12,239 nucleotides of DNA from IMG/VR virus record IMGVR_UViG_2671180458_000003; one strand, written 5' to 3'. The DNA is from a virus. Taxonomy: Duplodnaviria > Heunggongvirae > Uroviricota > Caudoviricetes. Of this stretch, positions 3 to 12,239 are shown piece after piece. The notes beneath the pieces were generated by a model, which made no database searches, had not been told where the DNA came from, and saw only the letters and a list, made by a program, of their open reading frames with translations. The number at the start of each line of letters is the position of its first letter. Positions within the stretch are counted from its first letter, which is position 1. The position numbers and the translations under genes were made by a program.

Positions 3-248
3 ATGAAAACCATCTTTATCAAACCCGAGCCGGGACGCCTGATTCGTGATCCCGACACAATGCGCCCGCTGGCACAGGAGGGAGAGAAAAAGCCCTTCAC
101 GCCGTTCTGGTGTCGGCGTCTTGATGACGGCGATGTCATTCAGGCTGAAAAAGCCGCTGAAGAGGCTCCGGCTGTATCTGCGGATGCAACGACTGCGACA
201 GAAAAACCGGTCGCCCAACCGGCATCCGATAAGGAGAAACCGCAATGA
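3..248 (+). CDS. hypothetical protein immediately upstream of the tail sheath gene (possibly 5'-partial)
   Basis: 81-aa ORF whose TGA stop overlaps the sheath ATG (ATGA at 245-248), suggesting translational coupling. Ala/Thr/Pro-rich low-complexity C-terminus. The window begins 2 nt before its first ATG, so the true start may lie upstream. Confidence 0.4.
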   Translation: MKTIFIKPEPGRLIRDPDTMRPLAQEGEKKPFTPFWCRRLDDGDVIQAEKAAEEAPAVSADATTATEKPVAQPASDKEKPQ

Positions 249-1747
249 TTAATTTTGACGGGATCGGTAATGACCGCCGTATACCGCTGATTGAGGTTGA
301 GTTTAATAACTCCATGGCTGTCACCGGCACTCCGGCACAGCGTCAGTGTGTGCTGCTGTTTGGTCAGGCGAGAATGAAAGAGAATGCCGTGGACGGTGCC
401 GGTGTTCTGGATGTTCCGGTCAGGATCACCCGTGCGTCTCAGGCAACAGAACTCTGGGGGCGCGGCTCCATGATTGCCCTGATGGTGGCGGAATTTATCG
501 CCATCAATCCTGATGCTGAACTGTATGCCATTGCTCAGGGGAATGGCACCGGACAGGCGTTATCCGCCGCCATGAATCTGACCGGAACGGTCACCCGTGA
601 CGGAATTGTTTATGCCTGCGTGGGGGGGCGGCGTTATACACTCCCGGCACCAAAAGGTAAGAAAGGCAAAGAACTGACCGACGAGCTGGCCGCGCTGATC
701 AATGCCGATCCTGACGCGCCCTTCACGGCCTCCTCTGGTGCAGGAAGTGGTGATAATGGCGCAGGTCTGAAAGGGTCTCTGGGGATCACCGCCCGCTTTA
801 CCGGTGAATGCTCCGTTCATGATGTGCGCCTGAACTATCACGACGGGGAAGCAACCCCGGAAGGAATACAGGTCGCTATAGCCTATCCGAAACAAAAAGC
901 GGCTAACCCGGATATCACCCGAAGCGTGGCGGGTATGGGCGATCGCCAGTACAACTATGTCGTCATGCCCTATAAGGATGATGCAAACCTGAAAATCATC
1001 AGTGATGAGCTTCTGAAACGCTGGGGACCGGCCAAAATGTCTGACGGCGTGCTGTGGCTGGCACATACCGGCACGTTTGGTGAGGTGCAGGCATTCGGGG
1101 CAAAACGCAATGATTTTCTGGCGACCTGCACATCCATTCCCAAAGCCCCTGAACCGGATTACCTCTGGGCCGCGGCGGTCTGCGCCACCTGTGCACCCTC
1201 TCTGGGAGCAGATCCTGCGCGTCCGCTTCAGACGCTGGCGCTTCCGTCACGCATGGCCCCGGCTCCGGCCGATCGTCTGACGCGTGAAGAGCGTAACAGT
1301 CTGTTGTGGGGAGGGATTGCCACGGTCAGTGTGGCTGCCGGTGATGTGCTTCAGATCGAACGTCAGGTGACCATGTATCGCCAGAACGTGTACGGCGAAA
1401 GTGATCCCAGCTATCTGGATGTGGAAACCATCTACACCCTCTCCTGGCTGCGTTATTCCCTGCGTACTTTTATCACACAACGTTTTCCGCGCCATAAACT
1501 GGCTGATGACGGGACGCCCGTTCGTGCCGGTCAGAATATCGTGACACCGGAGATCATGAAGCTTCAGTTAATTTCGCTGGGTGAAGAGTGGGTGGAACTC
1601 GGGCTGGTCGAAAATCTGGACACTTTTAAAAAGAATCTGCTTGTGGAGCGTAATGCGTCAGATCGAAACCGCCTTGACGTGTTATGCACGCCGGATCTGG
1701 TTAACCAGTTCCGCTTCCTGGCAGCACAGATCCGTTTCATTTTGTGA
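245..1747 (+). CDS. phage contractile tail sheath protein (Mu gpL-like)
   Basis: 500-aa ORF with a strong SD (AAGGAG at 235-240) before the ATG. It is followed 8 bp later by a ~120-aa ORF, the canonical sheath-tube pair, and sits first in a Mu-like tail gene order. Call is by size and synteny, not by a recognised motif. Confidence 0.65.
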   Translation: MINFDGIGNDRRIPLIEVEFNNSMAVTGTPAQRQCVLLFGQARMKENAVDGAGVLDVPVRITRASQATELWGRGSMIALMVAEFIAINPDAELYAIAQGNGTGQALSAAMNLTGTVTRDGIVYACVGGRRYTLPAPKGKKGKELTDELAALINADPDAPFTASSGAGSGDNGAGLKGSLGITARFTGECSVHDVRLNYHDGEATPEGIQVAIAYPKQKAANPDITRSVAGMGDRQYNYVVMPYKDDANLKIISDELLKRWGPAKMSDGVLWLAHTGTFGEVQAFGAKRNDFLATCTSIPKAPEPDYLWAAAVCATCAPSLGADPARPLQTLALPSRMAPAPADRLTREERNSLLWGGIATVSVAAGDVLQIERQVTMYRQNVYGESDPSYLDVETIYTLSWLRYSLRTFITQRFPRHKLADDGTPVRAGQNIVTPEIMKLQLISLGEEWVELGLVENLDTFKKNLLVERNASDRNRLDVLCTPDLVNQFRFLAAQIRFIL

Positions 1748-1755
1748 GGTAAGGC

Positions 1756-2121
1756 ATGAGCGGAAAACAGTATCAGGGCACGGCCACTATCCGTGTGAAC
1801 GGTCAGGAATACGAGACGCTTGAGGGGGCTACATTTTCTCCGTCAGGTTTTGAACGTGAAGTGGTGAAAGGCGCGAAAGTCTATGGTTACCGCCAGAAAC
1901 CACGTGAAGCGACGCTGGACTGCAAATTTCCGGCAGGCGGAGAAGGCTCACCAGCCGCTGATGAAATCAACAACTGGACTGCGGTCACCATCGAGTTTGT
2001 GGCGGATACCGGCGAAGTCCACATGATGACGAAGGCCTGGAGCAGTGAACCGGCCTCGCTTGACGGTGGCGGGGAGATCTCCGCGAAGTTCGCCAGTGCC
2101 ACCAGTACCCGTGTCCAGTAA
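1756..2121 (+). CDS. phage tail tube protein (Mu gpM-like)
   Basis: 121-aa ORF directly after the sheath gene and 14 bp before the chaperone gene; size and position are typical of a contractile-tail tube protein. Confidence 0.6.
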   Translation: MSGKQYQGTATIRVNGQEYETLEGATFSPSGFEREVVKGAKVYGYRQKPREATLDCKFPAGGEGSPAADEINNWTAVTIEFVADTGEVHMMTKAWSSEPASLDGGGEISAKFASATSTRVQ

Positions 2122-2135
2122 TCAGGAAAAATGCA

Positions 2136-2612
2136 ATGACCACACGAAAGAAAAAAAACGCGGTTTCTGACGAAGCCGTTATTGAGGCTATCCGTGATGC
2201 ACTTGAGGACGGCGATCCACGCACCGCCGGTCTGGCAGAACAACTGGCGAAAGGCTATGTGGATCTGCTTGATGGTCTGCCATTCGGTGAGTCCCGTGAA
2301 TACCGCGTCACCTTCCGCGAACTGACGGCGAAAGACAGCATTGATGCGGAAACCGATGCTGAACGTCTTATGGAAACCCGAAACGGCCCGGTTCTGGTGG
2401 CATCACCGGCCCTGCGCGGTATTGCGCTGCTGCGTCGCCAGATTGCCGCTGTCGGTGACATTCAGGGGCCGTTGTCACAACGCCAGATTGGGCAGTTAAG
2501 CGAGCGCGATCTCTCCCGTCTGATGGCAGCGGTCAGCCTGCTGGATACCGCGCTTGCCGGAAAGCTGGCGGCTGATCGGGGGCGAGCAGGCGCAGTGTCG
2601 GGCGCAGATTGA
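2136..2612 (+). CDS. tail assembly chaperone (Mu gp41-like position)
   Basis: 158-aa acidic ORF between the tube and tape measure genes. Its 3' end overlaps an alternative-frame ORF that runs to just before the tape measure start, the lambda G/GT-like arrangement. Confidence 0.55.
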   Translation: MTTRKKKNAVSDEAVIEAIRDALEDGDPRTAGLAEQLAKGYVDLLDGLPFGESREYRVTFRELTAKDSIDAETDAERLMETRNGPVLVASPALRGIALLRRQIAAVGDIQGPLSQRQIGQLSERDLSRLMAAVSLLDTALAGKLAADRGRAGAVSGAD

Positions 2613-2736
2613 AGAAGCGGCAATAGTGCTGGGGATGGTGACCAGAAGCGGCCCGGAATGGGCGCTTAACCTCCCCTTATCGCAACTTTACCGGCACTGC
2701 CAACAAACGGAAAAAATTCTCAGAACGAAGAAGTAA
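2524..2736 (+). CDS. putative frameshift-extension reading frame of the tail chaperone
   Basis: The frame one nucleotide downstream of the chaperone frame is open from 2524 to a TAA at 2734-2736, 3 nt before the tape measure ATG (2740) and in the same frame as it. The six-frame track reports it only from a TTG at 2554. Candidate shift sites are GGG-GGC-GA (2578-2585) and the terminal GAT-TGA (2607-2612). Confidence 0.35.
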   Translation, partial: WQRSACWIPRLPESWRLIGGEQAQCRAQIEEAAIVLGMVTRSGPEWALNLPLSQLYRHCQQTEKILRTKK

Positions 2737-2739
2737 TCC

Positions 2740-4794
2740 ATGGCAAAAAACCTGAAAGCCTCCCTGATTGTCGATTTACTCGGCAATGTTTCCGCCAAAT
2801 CCCGCCAGTGGTCACAGGAGCTGGGGGCGTTCTCCCGCGTCGGCAGGACGGGGCTGGGTGGTATTGGAAATGCAGCCCGCCGTGCCGGTCAGGAGACAGA
2901 GCTTGTCGGCTCCCGTATGCAGCGTACGCTTGCCGGTGTCCGTGGCAGTATCCGCACGGTAACGTCGGATTTTGACCGTCTTCAGGGCAGTATTACCGGC
3001 ACGCTGGGACGTCTCAGCAACCTTTACGGGATGCTGGCAGGAGGGGCTGCGGTCTACGGTTTTAATAAAGCCTTTATCCGCCCGGCCGCAGAGATGGAGA
3101 ACTATATTCTGCGTCTCAATGCCATTAATCATGGCGATACGGCAAAAACGGAAGCAGTGAAAGCCTGGGCGGTACAGAACGCAAAGGAAACCACCTGGGG
3201 ACTGGCGGGGGTTATGCAGGAATACGCCTCCAGTCGCGGGTTCGGTATGAGTGACAGGGAAGCCCGCCGCTTTATTACCATGCTTCAGGATCAGGGCGGC
3301 TATCACGGCTGGTCACTGTCAGATGCACAGGGGGCGTCCCTGCAACTCAAACAGATGTTTGCCCGCCAGAGTATCCAGGCCGCGGACGCCAGTATCCTGA
3401 CCGGATACGGGATAAACGTTTACCAGTTGCTGGCCGATAAACTGGGTGTAAACCAGAAGACCATCCGTGAGAAAGGCGAGAAAGGAAAACTGGGACCGGA
3501 CAGCATTCGGCTGTTATTTCAGGTGATGGCCGAACAGGCAAAAGGTGCCCAGAAAAACGCCATGAACTCATGGACAGGGATGACATCCATGATGGGCGAC
3601 GTCTGGGACGGATTTGCCCGTGAAGTAATGGCAAAAGGGCCATTTGACAGCCTGAAAAAGAGCCTGAAAGGCTTCCTGGATTATGCCGATGCGGCACAGA
3701 AAAGCGGCTTACAGGACAAGCTGGCCACACAAACAGCCTCAGCCCTGAATCAGGGCTTTGAGTATGCCAGAGACGCAGCGACGGGTTTTTACCGGGCCAT
3801 TCAGAAAGTCAGGGAAACGCTTCAGGCATTGCGTGACGCTGGTTATGGCGATGCGCTGGATCGCATTGGTCAGGGCGCACAGACCGCCGCGAAATATCTC
3901 CTGTATATGTATCTCGCCACCCGTGCGCTGAAGGCTGTCCGCGCCATAGGTCTTGGGGCACTGCGACCGGGGGCGGCATTGTTGGGGTACGGGTTATCCA
4001 CGGCCGCTGTGCTGACCTCGCCTTTTCGTAAACCGCAGACCACCGTTCCGGGCACGCAGCCAGGACGCGGCCAGCGTTTTATGAACTTTCTTACCGGGGT
4101 AAATCCTGCTGCCGTTCAGCCCGTACTGGTCACCAACTGGCCTGCGGGTGGTCTGGCATCTGGTGGCGGGGATGTGGTGGTCAGCGGTGACGGCAAAACC
4201 GTGCGCAGCCGTAAAAAACGCGGCCCCGGACGTGGGCGGGGTGTCACGACCGTTGTGACTGCCGGTGAGCAACTGGCAGAGAGCGCCGGTAAACAGGGCT
4301 TCTTCGGTCGTATGATGAGCCGTGCCGGTGGTCTGCTTTCGGCTGCCGGAAGCCGCATGGGGTTGGGGCGTTTTGCCGGGCTTTTCCGTGGTGCCGGTCG
4401 GCTGGGCGGTGGTGCCCTGTGGGCCGGGGCCATGGCGGCTCCTGTACTGCTGGACAGCAGTGCCAGTGCCGTTGATAAAGCCGGTGCCGTGGGTTCCCTT
4501 GCCGGAAGTATCGCCGGTGGTGCGCTGGGGGCTGCCGCCGGTCCGGTCGGGGTTGCCATTGGCTCCACGGTGGGCAGTTATCTCGGTGATTATCTGGGGG
4601 GATGGCTGACCGAAGCCTGGCAGAAATTACGGGGCAGTGATGAAAATGGCGGACAGGCCACCGCGAAAACCGCCGCACGGGTGGAGCTTGTGGCCCCTGA
4701 AGGCTGGCGGGCACGCAGTATTGATGTGGATGATACCGCACAGCATGGTCTTGATGTGAACGTCTGGAACGGAGGGAACTATGGCCTCTACTGA
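2740..4794 (+). CDS. tail tape measure protein
   Basis: 684-aa ORF, the longest in the operon, directly after the chaperone pair. Ala/Gln/Lys-rich N-terminal two thirds and a Gly/Ala-rich hydrophobic C-terminal third (GGALWAGAMAAPVLL, GSLAGSIAGGALGAAAGPVGVAIGS), typical of tape measure proteins. Confidence 0.8.
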   Translation: MAKNLKASLIVDLLGNVSAKSRQWSQELGAFSRVGRTGLGGIGNAARRAGQETELVGSRMQRTLAGVRGSIRTVTSDFDRLQGSITGTLGRLSNLYGMLAGGAAVYGFNKAFIRPAAEMENYILRLNAINHGDTAKTEAVKAWAVQNAKETTWGLAGVMQEYASSRGFGMSDREARRFITMLQDQGGYHGWSLSDAQGASLQLKQMFARQSIQAADASILTGYGINVYQLLADKLGVNQKTIREKGEKGKLGPDSIRLLFQVMAEQAKGAQKNAMNSWTGMTSMMGDVWDGFAREVMAKGPFDSLKKSLKGFLDYADAAQKSGLQDKLATQTASALNQGFEYARDAATGFYRAIQKVRETLQALRDAGYGDALDRIGQGAQTAAKYLLYMYLATRALKAVRAIGLGALRPGAALLGYGLSTAAVLTSPFRKPQTTVPGTQPGRGQRFMNFLTGVNPAAVQPVLVTNWPAGGLASGGGDVVVSGDGKTVRSRKKRGPGRGRGVTTVVTAGEQLAESAGKQGFFGRMMSRAGGLLSAAGSRMGLGRFAGLFRGAGRLGGGALWAGAMAAPVLLDSSASAVDKAGAVGSLAGSIAGGALGAAAGPVGVAIGSTVGSYLGDYLGGWLTEAWQKLRGSDENGGQATAKTAARVELVAPEGWRARSIDVDDTAQHGLDVNVWNGGNYGLY

Positions 4795-9363: not shown

Positions 9364-9914
9364 CCCTCACTCCGCATCAGCGCGCCCTGTTGCAGTTGCT
9401 GCCTGACGGACTGGCCTGGGACAAGCGGCCGTCATCCGTACTGGCTGCGTTATGCCTTGGCCTCAGCCATTCCACCGAACGTGTTGCATGGACGGGAAAA
9501 CAGCTGCTGGCAGAACGTTTCCCTGACAGTTCCCGTCTGCTTCTGGAAGACTGGGAGCGTTATCTCGGCCTTCCCGAGTGTGATATGGCCGGAGCCACCA
9601 TCACAGAACGACAGCGTTATGCCGGGAATAAATACCGGATGAAGCCTTCGCTGAACCGTGAATTTTATATCAGGTTTGCGGCAGAGTTTGGTTATGAAAT
9701 AGATATTCAGCCATCACCGGATTCACAGTGGGTCAGTATTGTCACGATAAACAGTGAAACCGGCTACCGGAATATGAATGTGCTGGATGATATTCTCACG
9801 CCGCTGCGTATTTATGAGGGTGGTGCGCTGGAATGTATTCTGAACCGTTATAAGCCTGCATGGCAGACGTTTATTTACGTGTATGCAAACAGTCACGAAG
9901 AGGAGAATATTTAA
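9354..9914 (+). CDS. tail/baseplate protein, Mu gp48 / P2 gpI-like (DUF2313, YmfQ-type)
   Basis: 186-aa ORF overlapping the J-like stop. Motifs LLPDGLAW and [10 protein letters not shown] match what I remember of the YmfQ/gp48 family. Lies immediately before the tail fibre gene. Confidence 0.65.
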
Positions 9915-10825
9915 TGTTCCATGTTGATAATAATTCCGGCGTGGCGAATATGCCTGAACTGGCTCCGGCGCAGAGTAATACCACCACCTGGTTTACCGAG
10001 GGGGACGGACAGAAAGGTATCAGCTGGATTGGTCAGGACTGGCTGAATATTCTCCAGGCCGAACTGCTGAATATTCTGGCTGAAGCCAGTATTCAGCCGG
10101 ATAAGGCGCAGTTAAACCAGCTTACGCTGTCCATTAAAGCCATTATCGCTGCGAATGCTTTTTCCCGGAAAAATAACCTGAAAGAAATTGCTGATGCCGG
10201 TGCGGATGCTCAGCGTCTGGCCCGTGGTTATCTTGGTCTGGGGACGCTTGCCACAAAAAACAGTCTTGGTCCCGGTGACGTTAATGCCCTGGCGAAGGTT
10301 CAGAATCTCGCCGACCTGGAGAATAAGGGAACCGCCCGTAATAATCTGGATGTTTACAGCAAGAGCGAAGGTGATAACCGTTACCTGCGCAGGGAGCAGC
10401 ACGGCGCAGACATTCCGAATAAAGGGGCTTTTATCGATAACCTCGGTTTACGGGAAACGGTAAACAGGGCTGCAAATGCCCTGCCATCGAATGGTACAGC
10501 CGTAGCGGCAAACAAGCTGTCTGCGGCACGTAAAATTAATGGTGTTGCGTTCGATGGCACAAAAGACATCACTATTACATCCGGTATGACCCAGGCTACA
10601 GCAGACGGCAGATATGTTCGTAATGTGCAACTTGGTGCTCAGAGCCGCCACTCTCCTGCGGGTAATGAAGTCACCTGGGATTATAAAACACCAGCAGGTT
10701 GTATGCTTTCCGGTATTCATGTACAGGATACCGGCTCCCGGTCTGCGGATAATATCGGTGGGGTCTATTATCGCCCGGTTCAGATTTATATTAATAATGT
10801 CTGGAGAACGGTGAGTTCAGTGTAA
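9914..10825 (+). CDS. tail fibre protein: constant N-terminal part (9914-10443) fused to the currently expressed variable C-terminal cassette (10444-10825)
   Basis: 303 aa from ATG 9914 (AGGAG 8 nt upstream, TAATG overlap with the previous stop); the track ORF 9860 is a spurious upstream extension. The N-terminus [15 protein letters not shown] is of the Mu S / e14 tail-fibre type as I remember it. The gene is interrupted internally by a gix-like crossover site at 10431-10456. Confidence 0.8.
10431..10456. other. gix/pix/hix-like 26-bp invertase crossover site (left)
   Basis: TTATCGATAACCTCGGTTTACGGGAA. Its reverse complement TTCCCGTAAACCGAGGTTATCGATAA closely resembles Mu gixL as I recall it (TTCCTGTAAACCGAGGTTTTGGATAA), with a central GA dinucleotide at 10443-10444. 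Lies inside the tail-fibre ORF at the constant/variable junction. Confidence 0.7.
10441..10560. repeat. left inverted repeat of the invertible segment (pairs with 11590-11709)
   Basis: Hand alignment of the reverse complement of 10441-10560 against 11590-11709 gives 96/120 identities, rising to about 90% or more in the ~50 bp next to the crossover site. Both copies encode nearly identical peptide (NLGLR[E/D][18 protein letters not shown]...INGVAFDGT). Confidence 0.75.
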
Positions 10826-10835
10826 ACCACAGAAA

Positions 10836-10854
10836 AGGGTGCTGAATGCACCCT
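10836..10854. terminator. hairpin between convergent genes (candidate bidirectional intrinsic terminator)
   Basis: AGGGTGC-TGAAT-GCACCCT, a 7-bp perfect stem with 5-nt loop, 10 nt after the fibre stop and 5 nt before the minus-strand assembly-gene stop. T-rich flank on the minus-strand side (TTTCTGTGGT). Confidence 0.4.
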
Positions 10855-10859
10855 CTGAA

Positions 10860-11256
10860 TTATTCCGGTTTTTCCGGCCAGGAAATCGCCTGGTAATGCC
10901 TCTCGCTGGCAATATCATTAAGGTGCATTTCTTTAAGCTGTCGGATATACGCCATCCAGCGCGTCAGCTTTAATTTATTTTCATCGCTAATCATGTCCAG
11001 TTTTAATTCTGTTTTCCAGTCATCCACGGTTCCGTTGGCCTCCTGGAGCAGCGATGAACGGCGATTTTCAGCAACCGTATTCCAGTTTACCGGCACCTTT
11101 GATATCAGGCCATCAGAAAACTGCCAGTTACCGTCAATATTCACACCTTCCGGCAGTTCGTCCACTTCAACAACAGTAAAACCTGCCGGATATAAAGCAG
11201 AGACATCTTCAGCAACAGAGCAGATAATGCCCGTTACAGGCGAAATACAGAGTTTG
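10860..11256 (-). CDS. tail fibre assembly protein (Tfa / Mu U-like), N-terminus lost in the N-gap
   Basis: 132 visible codons ending at stop 10860-10862. Carries Tfa-type motifs (GIICSVAEDVSALYPAGFTVVEV, MISDENKLKLTRWMAYIRQ, C-terminal WPEKPE). The reading frame runs into the N run at 11257. Confidence 0.7.
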
Positions 11257-11410
11257 NNNNNNNNNNNNNNNNNNNNNNNNNNNNNNNNNNNNNNNNNNNN
11301 NNNNNNNNNNNNNNNNNNNNNNNNNNNNNNNNNNNNNNNNNNNNNNNNNNNNNNNNNNNNNNNNNNNNNNNNNNNNNNNNNNNNNNNNNNNNNNNNNNNN
11401 NNNNNNNNNN
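11257..11410. other. run of 154 N (assembly gap or masked sequence)
   Basis: Literal n characters in the sequence. It lies inside the invertible segment and hides the junction between the alternative fibre cassette and the assembly-gene 5' end. Confidence 0.95.
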
Positions 11411-11705
11411 CACCACCACGCATTTCCCAGTCTCCGTCAGTCTTAAAACCGGTAATCACATTTCCTGATGACAGGGAGTAATTATATTCCAGTCCACCGC
11501 TTAATGCCTGCGCTCCCAGTCTTACCCCTGTAACATAACGCTGATTGGCCGTTGATTCCGGCATTCCTGACGTAATGTTTATATCCTGCGTGCCGTCAAA
11601 GGCGACACCATTGATTCTGCGGGCATTTGCCAGCCTGCTTGCTGCAACAGCCGTACCGTTTGATGGCAGGGCATTCGCGGCCCTGTTTACCGTATCCCGT
11701 AAACC
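11411..11705 (-). CDS. promoterless alternative tail-fibre C-terminal cassette (Sv'), 3' end lost in the N-gap
   Basis: Minus-strand frame is open from the right crossover site (codons [24 protein letters not shown]...) through ...QRYVTGVRLGAQALSGGLEYNYSLSSGNVITGFKTDGDWEMRGG into the gap. The first ~38 aa are near-identical to the plus-strand fibre after its crossover site, then the sequence diverges. No start codon or SD of its own at the 5' end; the track's Met at 11564 is internal. Confidence 0.7.
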
Positions 11706-11709
11706 GAGG
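11590..11709. repeat. right inverted repeat of the invertible segment (pairs with 10441-10560)
   Basis: See left repeat: about 80% identity over 120 bp by hand alignment. It gives rise to a mirror-image spurious ORF (11545-11760 +). Confidence 0.75.
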
Positions 11710-11719
11710 TTTCAGGGAT
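11694..11719. other. gix/pix/hix-like 26-bp invertase crossover site (right)
   Basis: ATCCCGTAAACCGAGGTTTCAGGGAT. It shares the inner half-site and core (TCCCGTAAACCGAGGTT) with the left site in inverted orientation; the outer half-site differs. Central GA at 11706-11707. Lies 55 bp upstream of the invertase ATG. Confidence 0.7.
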
Positions 11720-11773
11720 GCCGTATATCTGCTTTAAAAGGCATTTTCACCTCTTTTTAAGGAAGGTAAATAC

Positions 11774-12216
11774 ATGCTTATTGGCTATATACGCGTATCA
11801 ACAAATGATCAGAACACAGGTTACAAAGAAATGCGCTGGAATGTGCAGGATGTGAGCTGATTTTTGAAGATAAAATGAGCGGAAAAACAACGCAGCGGCC
11901 GGGACTGAAGCGGGCACTGAAGAAACTAAAACCCGGTGACACGCTGATGGTCTGGAAACTGGACAGGCTGGGGCGCAGTATGCGCCACCTTGTTGCGCTG
12001 ACAGATGAATTACAGCAACAGGGGATAAATTTTCGTAGTCTTACTGACAACATTGATACGTCAACCCCCATGGGGCGCTTCTTTTTTCACATAATGGGTG
12101 CGCTGGCAGAAATGGAGCGTGAATTGATTGTCGAACGGACACGGGCTGGTCTTGCAGCTGCCCGTGAAAGGGGACGAACCGGCGGCAGACCCCGTCGTCT
12201 CACGCAGGAACAATAG
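11774..12216 (+). pseudogene. Gin/Pin/Cin/Hin-family serine DNA invertase, reading frame disrupted (frameshift near 11817-11821; ORF also ends early at 12216)
   Basis: ATG 11774 with AGGAAGG SD gives MLIGYIRVSTNDQNT, the invertase N-terminus with catalytic Ser at position 9, then runs out of frame to a TGA at 11858-11860. The frame one nucleotide back continues LQRNALECAGCELIFEDKMSGKTTQRPGLKRALK...GRFFFHIMGALAEMERELIVERTRAGLAAARERG, collinear with Gin/Hin as I remember them. That frame stops at 12214-12216 (TAG-TAA), about 40 codons short of a typical invertase and before the C-terminal HTH. Confidence 0.65.
11866..11932. promoter_or_regulatory. putative Fis-dependent recombinational enhancer inside the 5' part of the invertase gene
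   Basis: Two Fis-like 15-mers (G-N13-C with an AT-rich centre): GAAGATAAAATGAGC at 11866-11880 and GAAGAAACTAAAACC at 11918-11932, centres about 52 bp apart. Gin/Hin enhancers are known to lie within the first ~150 bp of the invertase gene. Pattern match only. Confidence 0.25.
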
Positions 12217-12239
12217 TAAGCGTAAACTGACCGCCGTAT

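Follow-up and report, generated by a model that had tools for sequence, protein, structure and literature searches.

A predicted compact fibre-switching segment with one chaperone gene between two tips in Sp18-type Mu-like prophages of Escherichia coli

In the C segment of phage P1 (invertase Cin) and the P segment of e14 (invertase Pin), the C-termini of tail fibres are exchanged by a serine invertase, and one tail-fibre assembly (tfa) gene accompanies each alternative tip. Tfa proteins are usually seen as the private partner of one tip, so that a new tip is thought to need a chaperone of its own, and this view complicates the host-range engineering of phages and tailocins. Here, a 12,239-nucleotide (nt) stretch of DNA (IMG/VR record IMGVR_UViG_2671180458_000003, hereafter the window) was analysed, in which the 3' part of a tail-fibre gene, a single tfa gene and a serine invertase gene appear to make up a compact version of the host-range switch of the Mu G segment, with the one chaperone gene lying between the two tips. 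An earlier reading of the same DNA (the original prediction) had pointed out that the layout is unlike that of Mu, and rightly so: Mu and SfMu are arranged S-U / U'-S', and one tfa gene is found here. This apparent anomaly proved to be the normal design of Sp18-type Mu-like prophages, not a product of decay.

Genes for the tail and baseplate of a Mu-like prophage lie in the window, among them those for sheath, tube and tape measure together with gp43-48 homologues, and 3' of the baseplate genes a 303-amino-acid (aa) tail-fibre gene (9914-10825) is followed by the invertase gene (from 11774). The prophage is of the Sp18 type, Mu-like, of E. coli. From position 905 onwards, the window was 98-100% identical to E. 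coli 89-3156 (locus L001), and both flanks of the run of N in the window were 100% identical in the two sequences; the window does not derive from strain 89-3156 itself, as shown by an identity of ~98% further upstream. Feature coordinates are collected in Table 1.

Two 26-bp gix-like sites were located inside the fibre gene, one at each outer end of an inverted repeat of 150 nt. When counted by hand with the central TC included, 22 of 26 positions of the left site and 19 of 26 positions of the right site were identical to the gix of Mu (TTATCCAAAACC-TC-GGTTTACAGGAA, gixL). Genomes in which the constant part of the fibre is joined to the first tip, as in the window (orientation A, tip1), were aligned with genomes in which it is joined to the second (orientation B, tip2): the sequence switched exactly at the left site (...IDNLGLR), and the constant part ran in frame into tip1 or tip2 in the respective orientation. 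From the positions of the repeat and of the gix-like sites, the invertible unit is 10445-11705, in agreement with the segment first proposed (10444-11706), and it measures 1,424 bp once the gap is closed. The segment is predicted to be of the Gin/G-segment type, with Mu-like gix sites. At window 11575-11760 (L001 13879-14064), RefSeq has a plus-strand 'hypothetical protein' of 61 aa, which runs antisense to the repeat and to silent tip2; this is most likely a spurious call owing to the unrecognised inverted tip.

The content of the gap was taken over from strain 89-3156 on the strength of the identical flanks, and the window presumably carries the same DNA there: tfa contributes its first 125 nt and tip2 its last 71 nt, stop codon included, and an AT-rich spacer of 121 nt separates the two. 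The gap had originally been placed at 11257-11410 and taken as 154 bp, with the prospect of a second, plus-strand assembly gene inside it; the strain with identical flanks has 317 bp at this place and no such gene. No second tfa lies in the closed gap, and when five different Tfa proteins were used as tblastn queries against the prophage region of 49 kb, again only the one gene was detected. The single tfa is co-oriented with tip2, which it follows after the spacer, and convergent with tip1, as had been claimed from the window by itself. Between the stop of tip1 (10825) and the convergent stop of tfa (10860) there are 34 nt, so a plus-strand tfa cannot fit there, again as first stated. Membership of the Tfa family was clear from PF02413 (Caudo_TAP; 66.3 bits against a cut-off of 22.1), phrog_136 (E-value 7e-57) and Mu U (5YVQ_B; E-value 5e-16).

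For comparison with relatives, 22 related loci were studied in detail (five from E. coli genomes or a Shiga toxin (Stx) phage record with an inserted copy, and 17 IMG/VR contigs), and junction-specific searches were run on 5,426 complete E. coli genomes. In 22 of the 22 loci there was exactly one tfa, with a co-oriented tip on one side and a convergent tip on the other, and no locus carried two tfa genes; the convergent position was occupied by at least two tip families and the co-oriented one by three, and tfa itself came in three types. The junction searches indicated the single-tfa layout in ~200 of the 5,426 genomes, those of O157:H7 included, where the segment has the same layout at ~94% identity. 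A single tfa is what this prophage family normally has, and the design is conserved.

A canonical S-U / U'-S' cassette that recently lost its U'-type tfa in a defective prophage would give a similar gene order, in which case the layout would be a meaningless remnant. Canonical relatives do exist (Mu and SfMu), tip1-type tips usually go with a Tfa of the U'/G type, and the invertase of the window copy is broken. However, the absence of a second tfa from all 22 loci does not fit a recent loss, and the layout is common to lineages whose fibre constant parts are only 62-70% identical and whose tfa alleles are only 60-63% identical to that of the window; being shared by such diverged lineages, it must be old and maintained. 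A degenerate remnant is the least probable of the explanations considered here. An ancestral deletion may well have been the origin of the layout, though this does not describe its present status, and the idea that a second assembly gene had been deleted in this particular copy fell away when the relatives were compared, all 22 loci having a single tfa.

Both orientations were encountered. Orientation A was found in 186 of the ~197 complete genomes with a junction (a count inflated by clonal sampling of O157:H7) and orientation B in 11; the 13 IMG/VR loci with an invertase comprised 8 in A and 5 in B. In orientation-B strains the gene order is S-tip2, spacer, tfa, inverted tip1 and an intact 186-aa invertase gene, the expressed tip of the orientation-B genomes L004-L006 being tip2, and an intact invertase was also present in an orientation-A O157:H7 strain. 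The existence of strains in A and of strains in B means that natural inversion of the segment takes place.

In some of the relatives, orientation A has become permanent. In this fixed lineage (five IMG/VR loci and seven complete genomes, e.g. strain CI5), S-tip1 is followed by the convergent tfa; neither invertase nor right repeat remains, and of the co-oriented tip nothing but a short remnant ending ...ITAYYRLII* is still visible. The tfa gene was intact in the four full-length IMG/VR copies and in the CI5 copy, the L026 copy being truncated at residue 63, where its contig ends; among the four full-length IMG/VR copies, the ratio of non-synonymous to synonymous substitution rates (dN/dS) of tfa was 0.10-0.23. 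For the tip1 family, dN/dS was 0.04-0.12 with synonymous sites saturated, values which indicate that tip1 is under strong purifying selection.

These data bear on the suggestion, made in the original prediction, that orientation A might be an off or low-function state. Such a state would give fibreless or poorly infectious particles for want of a co-transcribed chaperone; the order and orientation of the genes favour it, and the frameshifted invertase marks the window copy as at least partly decayed. The comparison with relatives does not support the suggestion, though: every relative checked (~200 complete E. coli genomes and 18 IMG/VR contigs) has the single-tfa layout, which was seen in both orientations and beside intact invertases. 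Orientation A prevails in both sets of counts given above, tip1 has the low dN/dS of a conserved domain, and the family is spread over many E. coli lineages and insertion sites (PMC7430833). Whole lineages are fixed in A with intact fibre and tfa genes, and a chaperone gene that was useless in the convergent arrangement would be expected to decay, which speaks against an off state. We consider it very unlikely.

The fibre is built from a constant part, ~50 residues encoded by the shared repeat and a distal domain, and at 303 aa it is ~200 residues shorter than Mu S (504 aa). The constant part gave a full-length match to phrog_1833 (E-value 8e-159) and was 47-48% identical to residues 1-198 of the S proteins of Mu and D108; no Pfam match to the fibre was obtained at E-values up to 0.1. 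Tip1 resembled the C-terminal end of the short tail fibre of phiTE (9CUY; E-value 4e-15) as well as Mu S 433-503 (5YVQ_A; E-value 8.5e-11), and tip2 resembled Mu S 436-503 (5YVQ_A; E-value 3e-24), the distal domain of Mu S in 5YVQ having been crystallised together with Tfa. The unique parts of tip1 and tip2 were ~35-38% identical to each other, or 52% when the shared repeat was counted in. Further relatives of tip1 were the S' tip of SfMu and H tips of P2-like phages (52-57% identity) and tips of P2-like phages and of Certrevirus CR8 (44-52%). Two flanking motifs are common to all tips: RY(V/I)..(V/I)RLG and YYRPxQ..ING.W...S. The expressed tip had been called short, and with 82 unique residues it is, but this is no peculiarity of tip1, tip2 being equally short (~77).

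An intramolecular chaperone (of the peptidase S74 type) or an unusual fold in tip1 was ruled out: no Pfam domain was found, and tip1 could be aligned over its whole length with the Mu S distal domain. Both tips stop where the Mu S domain stops, leaving 0 surplus residues at the C-terminus, so there is no space for an intramolecular chaperone domain.

Taken together, the comparisons suggest the following mechanism. A Gin-type serine invertase would flip the 1,424-bp segment between the two gix-like sites within the fibre gene, so that the constant N-terminal two-thirds of the fibre would be joined to either of two ~80-residue distal domains, tip1 or tip2. We lean towards the view that one promiscuous Tfa serves both tips and is expressed independently of orientation. 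The N-terminal half of Tfa, as the fibre-binding part, would recognise YYRPxQ..ING.W...S, the C-terminal motif that all tips share, and tfa would be made in both orientations from its own signals in the upstream spacer, not by read-through from the fibre gene. That the fibre-binding part of Tfa is its N-terminal domain is stated in the passage of PMC9608196 which cites North et al. (2019).

That one Tfa could act on both tips is plausible in view of the comparative data on tips and Tfa proteins. Within the family, a tfa type conserved at 93-96% identity adjoins tip2 or tip3, two tips with only 39% identity to each other. Among the canonical phages, SfMu U' has 91% identity to Mu U, yet the tip beside it (SfMu S') is of the tip1 type and the tip beside Mu U (Mu S) of the tip2 type. 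The tip1-type tips of SfMu, of a P2-like phage and of Certrevirus CR8 each have their own Tfa gene 2-5 nt 3', which argues that this type of tip is normally chaperone-dependent. The first ~45 residues of the window Tfa were ~60% identical to those of the Tfa of CR8 (own count in the alignment), whose fibre has a tip1-type tip. An action of Tfa on tip1 is inferred.

The chaperone for tip1 might instead be supplied in trans, by the Tfa of another prophage (e.g. a lambdoid or P2-like prophage in Stx-producing E. coli, STEC), the local tfa serving tip2 only. The Tfa of lambda can substitute for gp38 of T4. The pairing of near-identical Tfa proteins with different tips is in keeping with such complementation, and O157-type hosts are rich in prophages (PMC2669165). 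Reliance on the simultaneous induction of another prophage would, however, be fragile, the layout is present in non-STEC hosts as well (e.g. CI5), and the retention of tfa in the fixed lineage would be left unexplained. We regard complementation in trans as very unlikely indeed.

The expression of tfa in orientation A is the weakest part of this model. The gene has its own Shine-Dalgarno sequence, and the AT-rich spacer before it measures 121, 79 or 51 nt according to the type of segment, compared with only 2-5 nt in Mu, SfMu, the P2-like phage and CR8. Between tip2-type and fixed lineages, the 60 nt nearest tfa diverged by 2-8%, against 27-33% in the distal half of the spacer and ~74% at synonymous sites of tfa. 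This suggests that the 60 nt nearest tfa could be a constrained element, e.g. a promoter, a 5' untranslated region or a translation start region. Orientation-independent expression of tfa would agree with these features.

Inside the gap (L001 13523-13573), an in-frame hydrophobic extension of 17 codons (MAIVLFLFLSLIYMVMF) lies 5' of the annotated tfa start in the L001 lineage. It is probably not translated, because its ATG is ATA in the L006-type lineage; its DNA is highly conserved nonetheless. No Rfam match was obtained in the segment at E-values up to 1. A site shared with other genes for a late activator (C/Mor) was considered and rejected: when 12-mers were compared with the regions upstream of lys, of the protease gene, of the baseplate operon and of com, only scattered, non-collinear matches were seen.

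Several observations weigh against a promiscuous Tfa made in both orientations. In and around the spacers, sigma-70-like matches occurred at or below the frequency in shuffled sequences (L001, L009 and L024), and a 10/12 sigma-70 match ~125 nt upstream of tfa was found in the fixed lineage (L018) only. The dyad conserved in the spacer (CTGAAATATGCGTTATTTCAG) was met only once in the prophage region of 49 kb, and being unique in the prophage it is not a shared late-activator site. The spacer sequence is wholly different among tip2-type, tip3-type and L024-type segments. Recombination tracts could account for the conservation of the spacer in place of function, an explanation made plausible by tip2, which is itself nearly identical across lineages. 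Recombination with invertible relatives appears to have left traces in the tfa alleles of the fixed lineage, so the dN/dS values of these alleles are not purely post-fixation. Finally, the fibre transcript of orientation A may read antisense into tfa, because the hairpin between the convergent stops is without a U tract in the fibre direction. The hairpin is stable, with a folding energy of -14.7 kcal/mol (z -4.6) on one strand and -14.2 kcal/mol (z -3.6) on the other, and a U tract follows it in the minus (tfa) sense only.

Some of these points would suit a Tfa used in orientation B only: tfa would be co-transcribed with tip2, and fibres with tip1 would trimerise unaided or with general host chaperones. 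Inversion would then exchange the tip and at the same time decide whether the fibre bears a Tfa cap. The tfa gene is convergent with tip1, with the hairpin alone between them, and no tfa promoter rose above chance in the sigma-70 scans. The window Tfa was closest to Mu U' and SfMu U, the partners of tips of the Mu S' type (34-35% identity, compared with 30-32% for others). According to PMC9608196, where it cites North 2019, the Tfa of Mu remains on the mature fibre, so its presence or absence could affect host recognition. Against this stand the tip1-type tips of three unrelated phage groups, each with its own Tfa at 2-5 nt, the intact and apparently selected tfa kept in lineages fixed with tip1 expressed, and the membership of tip1 and tip2 in the same fold family with the same C-terminal motif. 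Folding of tip1 without a chaperone is less likely on these grounds, and use of Tfa in one orientation only is an unlikely, though serious, alternative to the promiscuous Tfa that we favour.

A bolder form of that alternative, for which we see a somewhat smaller chance still, is that inversion alternates between a Tfa-capped tip2 fibre and a naked, self-folding tip1 fibre, with tfa sense RNA in orientation B only and possibly antisense RNA in A. If so, the chaperone gene would be a phase-variable determinant of specificity, and tip1 would be a natural Mu-type distal domain freed from dependence on Tfa.

Across lineages, the tips differed in their variation: tip2 was nearly identical (synonymous divergence, dS, 0.02-0.08) in lineages with a fibre constant part only 62-70% identical, and the tip1 family was saturated (loci L001-L025). 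This uniformity of tip2 suggests a recent sweep of a module made of tip2 and the spacer, or an extra constraint on its DNA.

The invertase gene of the window copy is frameshifted. The deletion was seen by alignment with the intact 186-aa homologues of L004 and L028, and the gene of the identical strain is likewise recorded as 'frameshifted' in RefSeq; when the reading frame of that strain was restored, the product matched PF00239 (E-value 1e-38) and PF02796 (E-value 1e-14), i.e. a resolvase catalytic domain and HTH_7. The switch is probably locked with tip1 expressed in this genome, unless another resident invertase acts in trans. The frameshifted invertase is the only sign of decay in the window copy.

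Table 1. Features of the fibre-switching region, in coordinates of the window.
Feature	Position	Strand	Details
Constant N-terminal part of tail-fibre gene S	9914-10442	+	Up to the crossover site; coding sequence annotated in the identical strain (L001 12055-12966)
Left gix-like crossover site	10431-10456		TTATCGATAACC-TC-GGTTTACGGGAA; central TC at 10443-10444
Left arm of inverted repeat	10439-10588		Repeat search: 150 nt, 77% complementary; codes for ~50 residues common to both fibre forms
Tip1, expressed distal domain	10577-10825	+	82 unique codons and stop
Hairpin between convergent stops	10834-10856		9 pairs, then TCTGTGGTTT on the minus strand; terminator-like in the tfa sense
tfa, tail-fibre assembly gene, 3' 398 nt	10860-11257	-	Residues 42-173 and stop; remainder in the gap; full gene 173 aa
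Run of 154 N	11258-11411		317 bp in strain 89-3156 (L001 13398-13714)
Tip2, visible part of the silent tip	11412-11573	-	77 unique codons in all
Right arm of inverted repeat	11562-11711		Repeat search: 150 nt, 77% complementary
Right gix-like crossover site	11694-11719		Central GA at 11706-11707; reverse complement ATCCCTGAAACC-TC-GGTTTACGGGAT matches Mu gix
Serine invertase (Gin/Pin-type) pseudogene	11774-12215	+	1-nt deletion near 11820 (TTT to TT), frame shifted beyond codon 15; at 12215 the window sequence departs from the gene

Outside the segment, both ends of the window depart from the relatives. Positions 1-905 are mosaic, with ~75% identity to L001 over 3-539 and no alignment over 540-904. 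The last 24 nt (12216-12239, GTAAGCGTAAACTGACCGCCGTAT) have no counterpart in the invertase gene of any relative and resemble TAAGCGTACACTGACCGCC, a sequence that adjoins a feature named 'tRNA-OTHER' in this prophage family's head region (L008, ~20740-20760); they could reflect an assembly join or a rearrangement. Downstream of the window (L001 14737-17389), between the invertase and com/mom, relatives encode a 680-aa DUF6645 protein, in which an esterase-like GQSN motif was read by eye, together with DUF1378 and DUF826 genes, a module that we take to be otherwise typical of Stx phages (nanS-p-like).

In phage records LC727895.1 and LC727881.1 (L003), a copy of the Mu-like prophage was found inserted in Stx1a- and Stx2c-converting phage genomes, which shows that the element still transposes to new sites. 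Insertion sites of the family are reported to vary among strains (PMC7430833), and the genome search agreed, the chromosomal position of the copies varying by strain. In a scan of species-representative genome contigs (one genome per species), no match to tfa was found outside E. coli, and the sole match to the fibre outside E. coli was a distant Kluyvera locus. This locus (L030, Kluyvera intermedia NZ_JAKCNS010000076.1) encodes a Mu-like fibre, 41% identical over 93 aa, behind which lie a Tfa-like C-terminal match and an invertase with 46% identity. On this evidence, weak with one genome per species, the single-tfa prophage family looks largely confined to E. coli.

The layout is a natural and widespread switch in which two or more divergent tips are exchanged around a single chaperone gene. 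It thereby offers a ready-made system for asking what a Tfa recognises, whether one Tfa can serve several tips, and how expression in both orientations is achieved for a gene that lies within an invertible segment. How one chaperone gene can serve both orientations is the modest question that the layout raises. In the searchable literature no paper describing a single-tfa invertible segment was found, the family being mentioned in passing only.

Among the closest described systems is Sp18 of O157:H7 Sakai, which belongs to the same prophage family and has the same layout, the window copy differing by its frameshifted invertase. Sp18 was judged intact, its DNA was packaged and Mu-like particles were released (Asadulghani et al., PMC2669165); its infectivity was not determined in that study, and the text of the paper does not mention the single-chaperone layout or its working. 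The carotovoricin Er of Pectobacterium (invertase Ein) is changed in its target range by inversion of the C-terminal part of the tail fibre, as PMC13195805 reports in citing Nguyen 2001; unlike the prophage described here, it is a tailocin, a contractile tail-like particle of P2-type ancestry. P2-like phages and Certrevirus CR8 have fibre ends of the tip1 type as here and, in the case of CR8, a Tfa with an N-terminus resembling that of the window Tfa, but no inversion takes place in them and Tfa lies directly 3' on the same strand.

The G segment of Mu (likewise of D108 and SfMu) is another of the closest systems. It shares the context of Mu-type baseplate and fibre genes with gp44-48 homologues upstream, the gix-like sites and a Gin-type serine invertase gene directly downstream; tip2 resembles the distal domain of Mu S, and the tfa product resembles Mu U. 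There are also differences: Mu and SfMu have two tfa genes (S-U / U'-S') at 2 nt from the fibre gene, whereas a single tfa behind a spacer of 51-121 nt is found here; the variable parts comprise ~300 residues in Mu and ~80 here; the G segment of Mu is ~3.06 kb (31966-35025), compared with 1.4 kb; and the repeats of SfMu are reported as 34 bp (PMC4406740), in place of the 150-nt coding inverted repeat of the Sp18-type segment.

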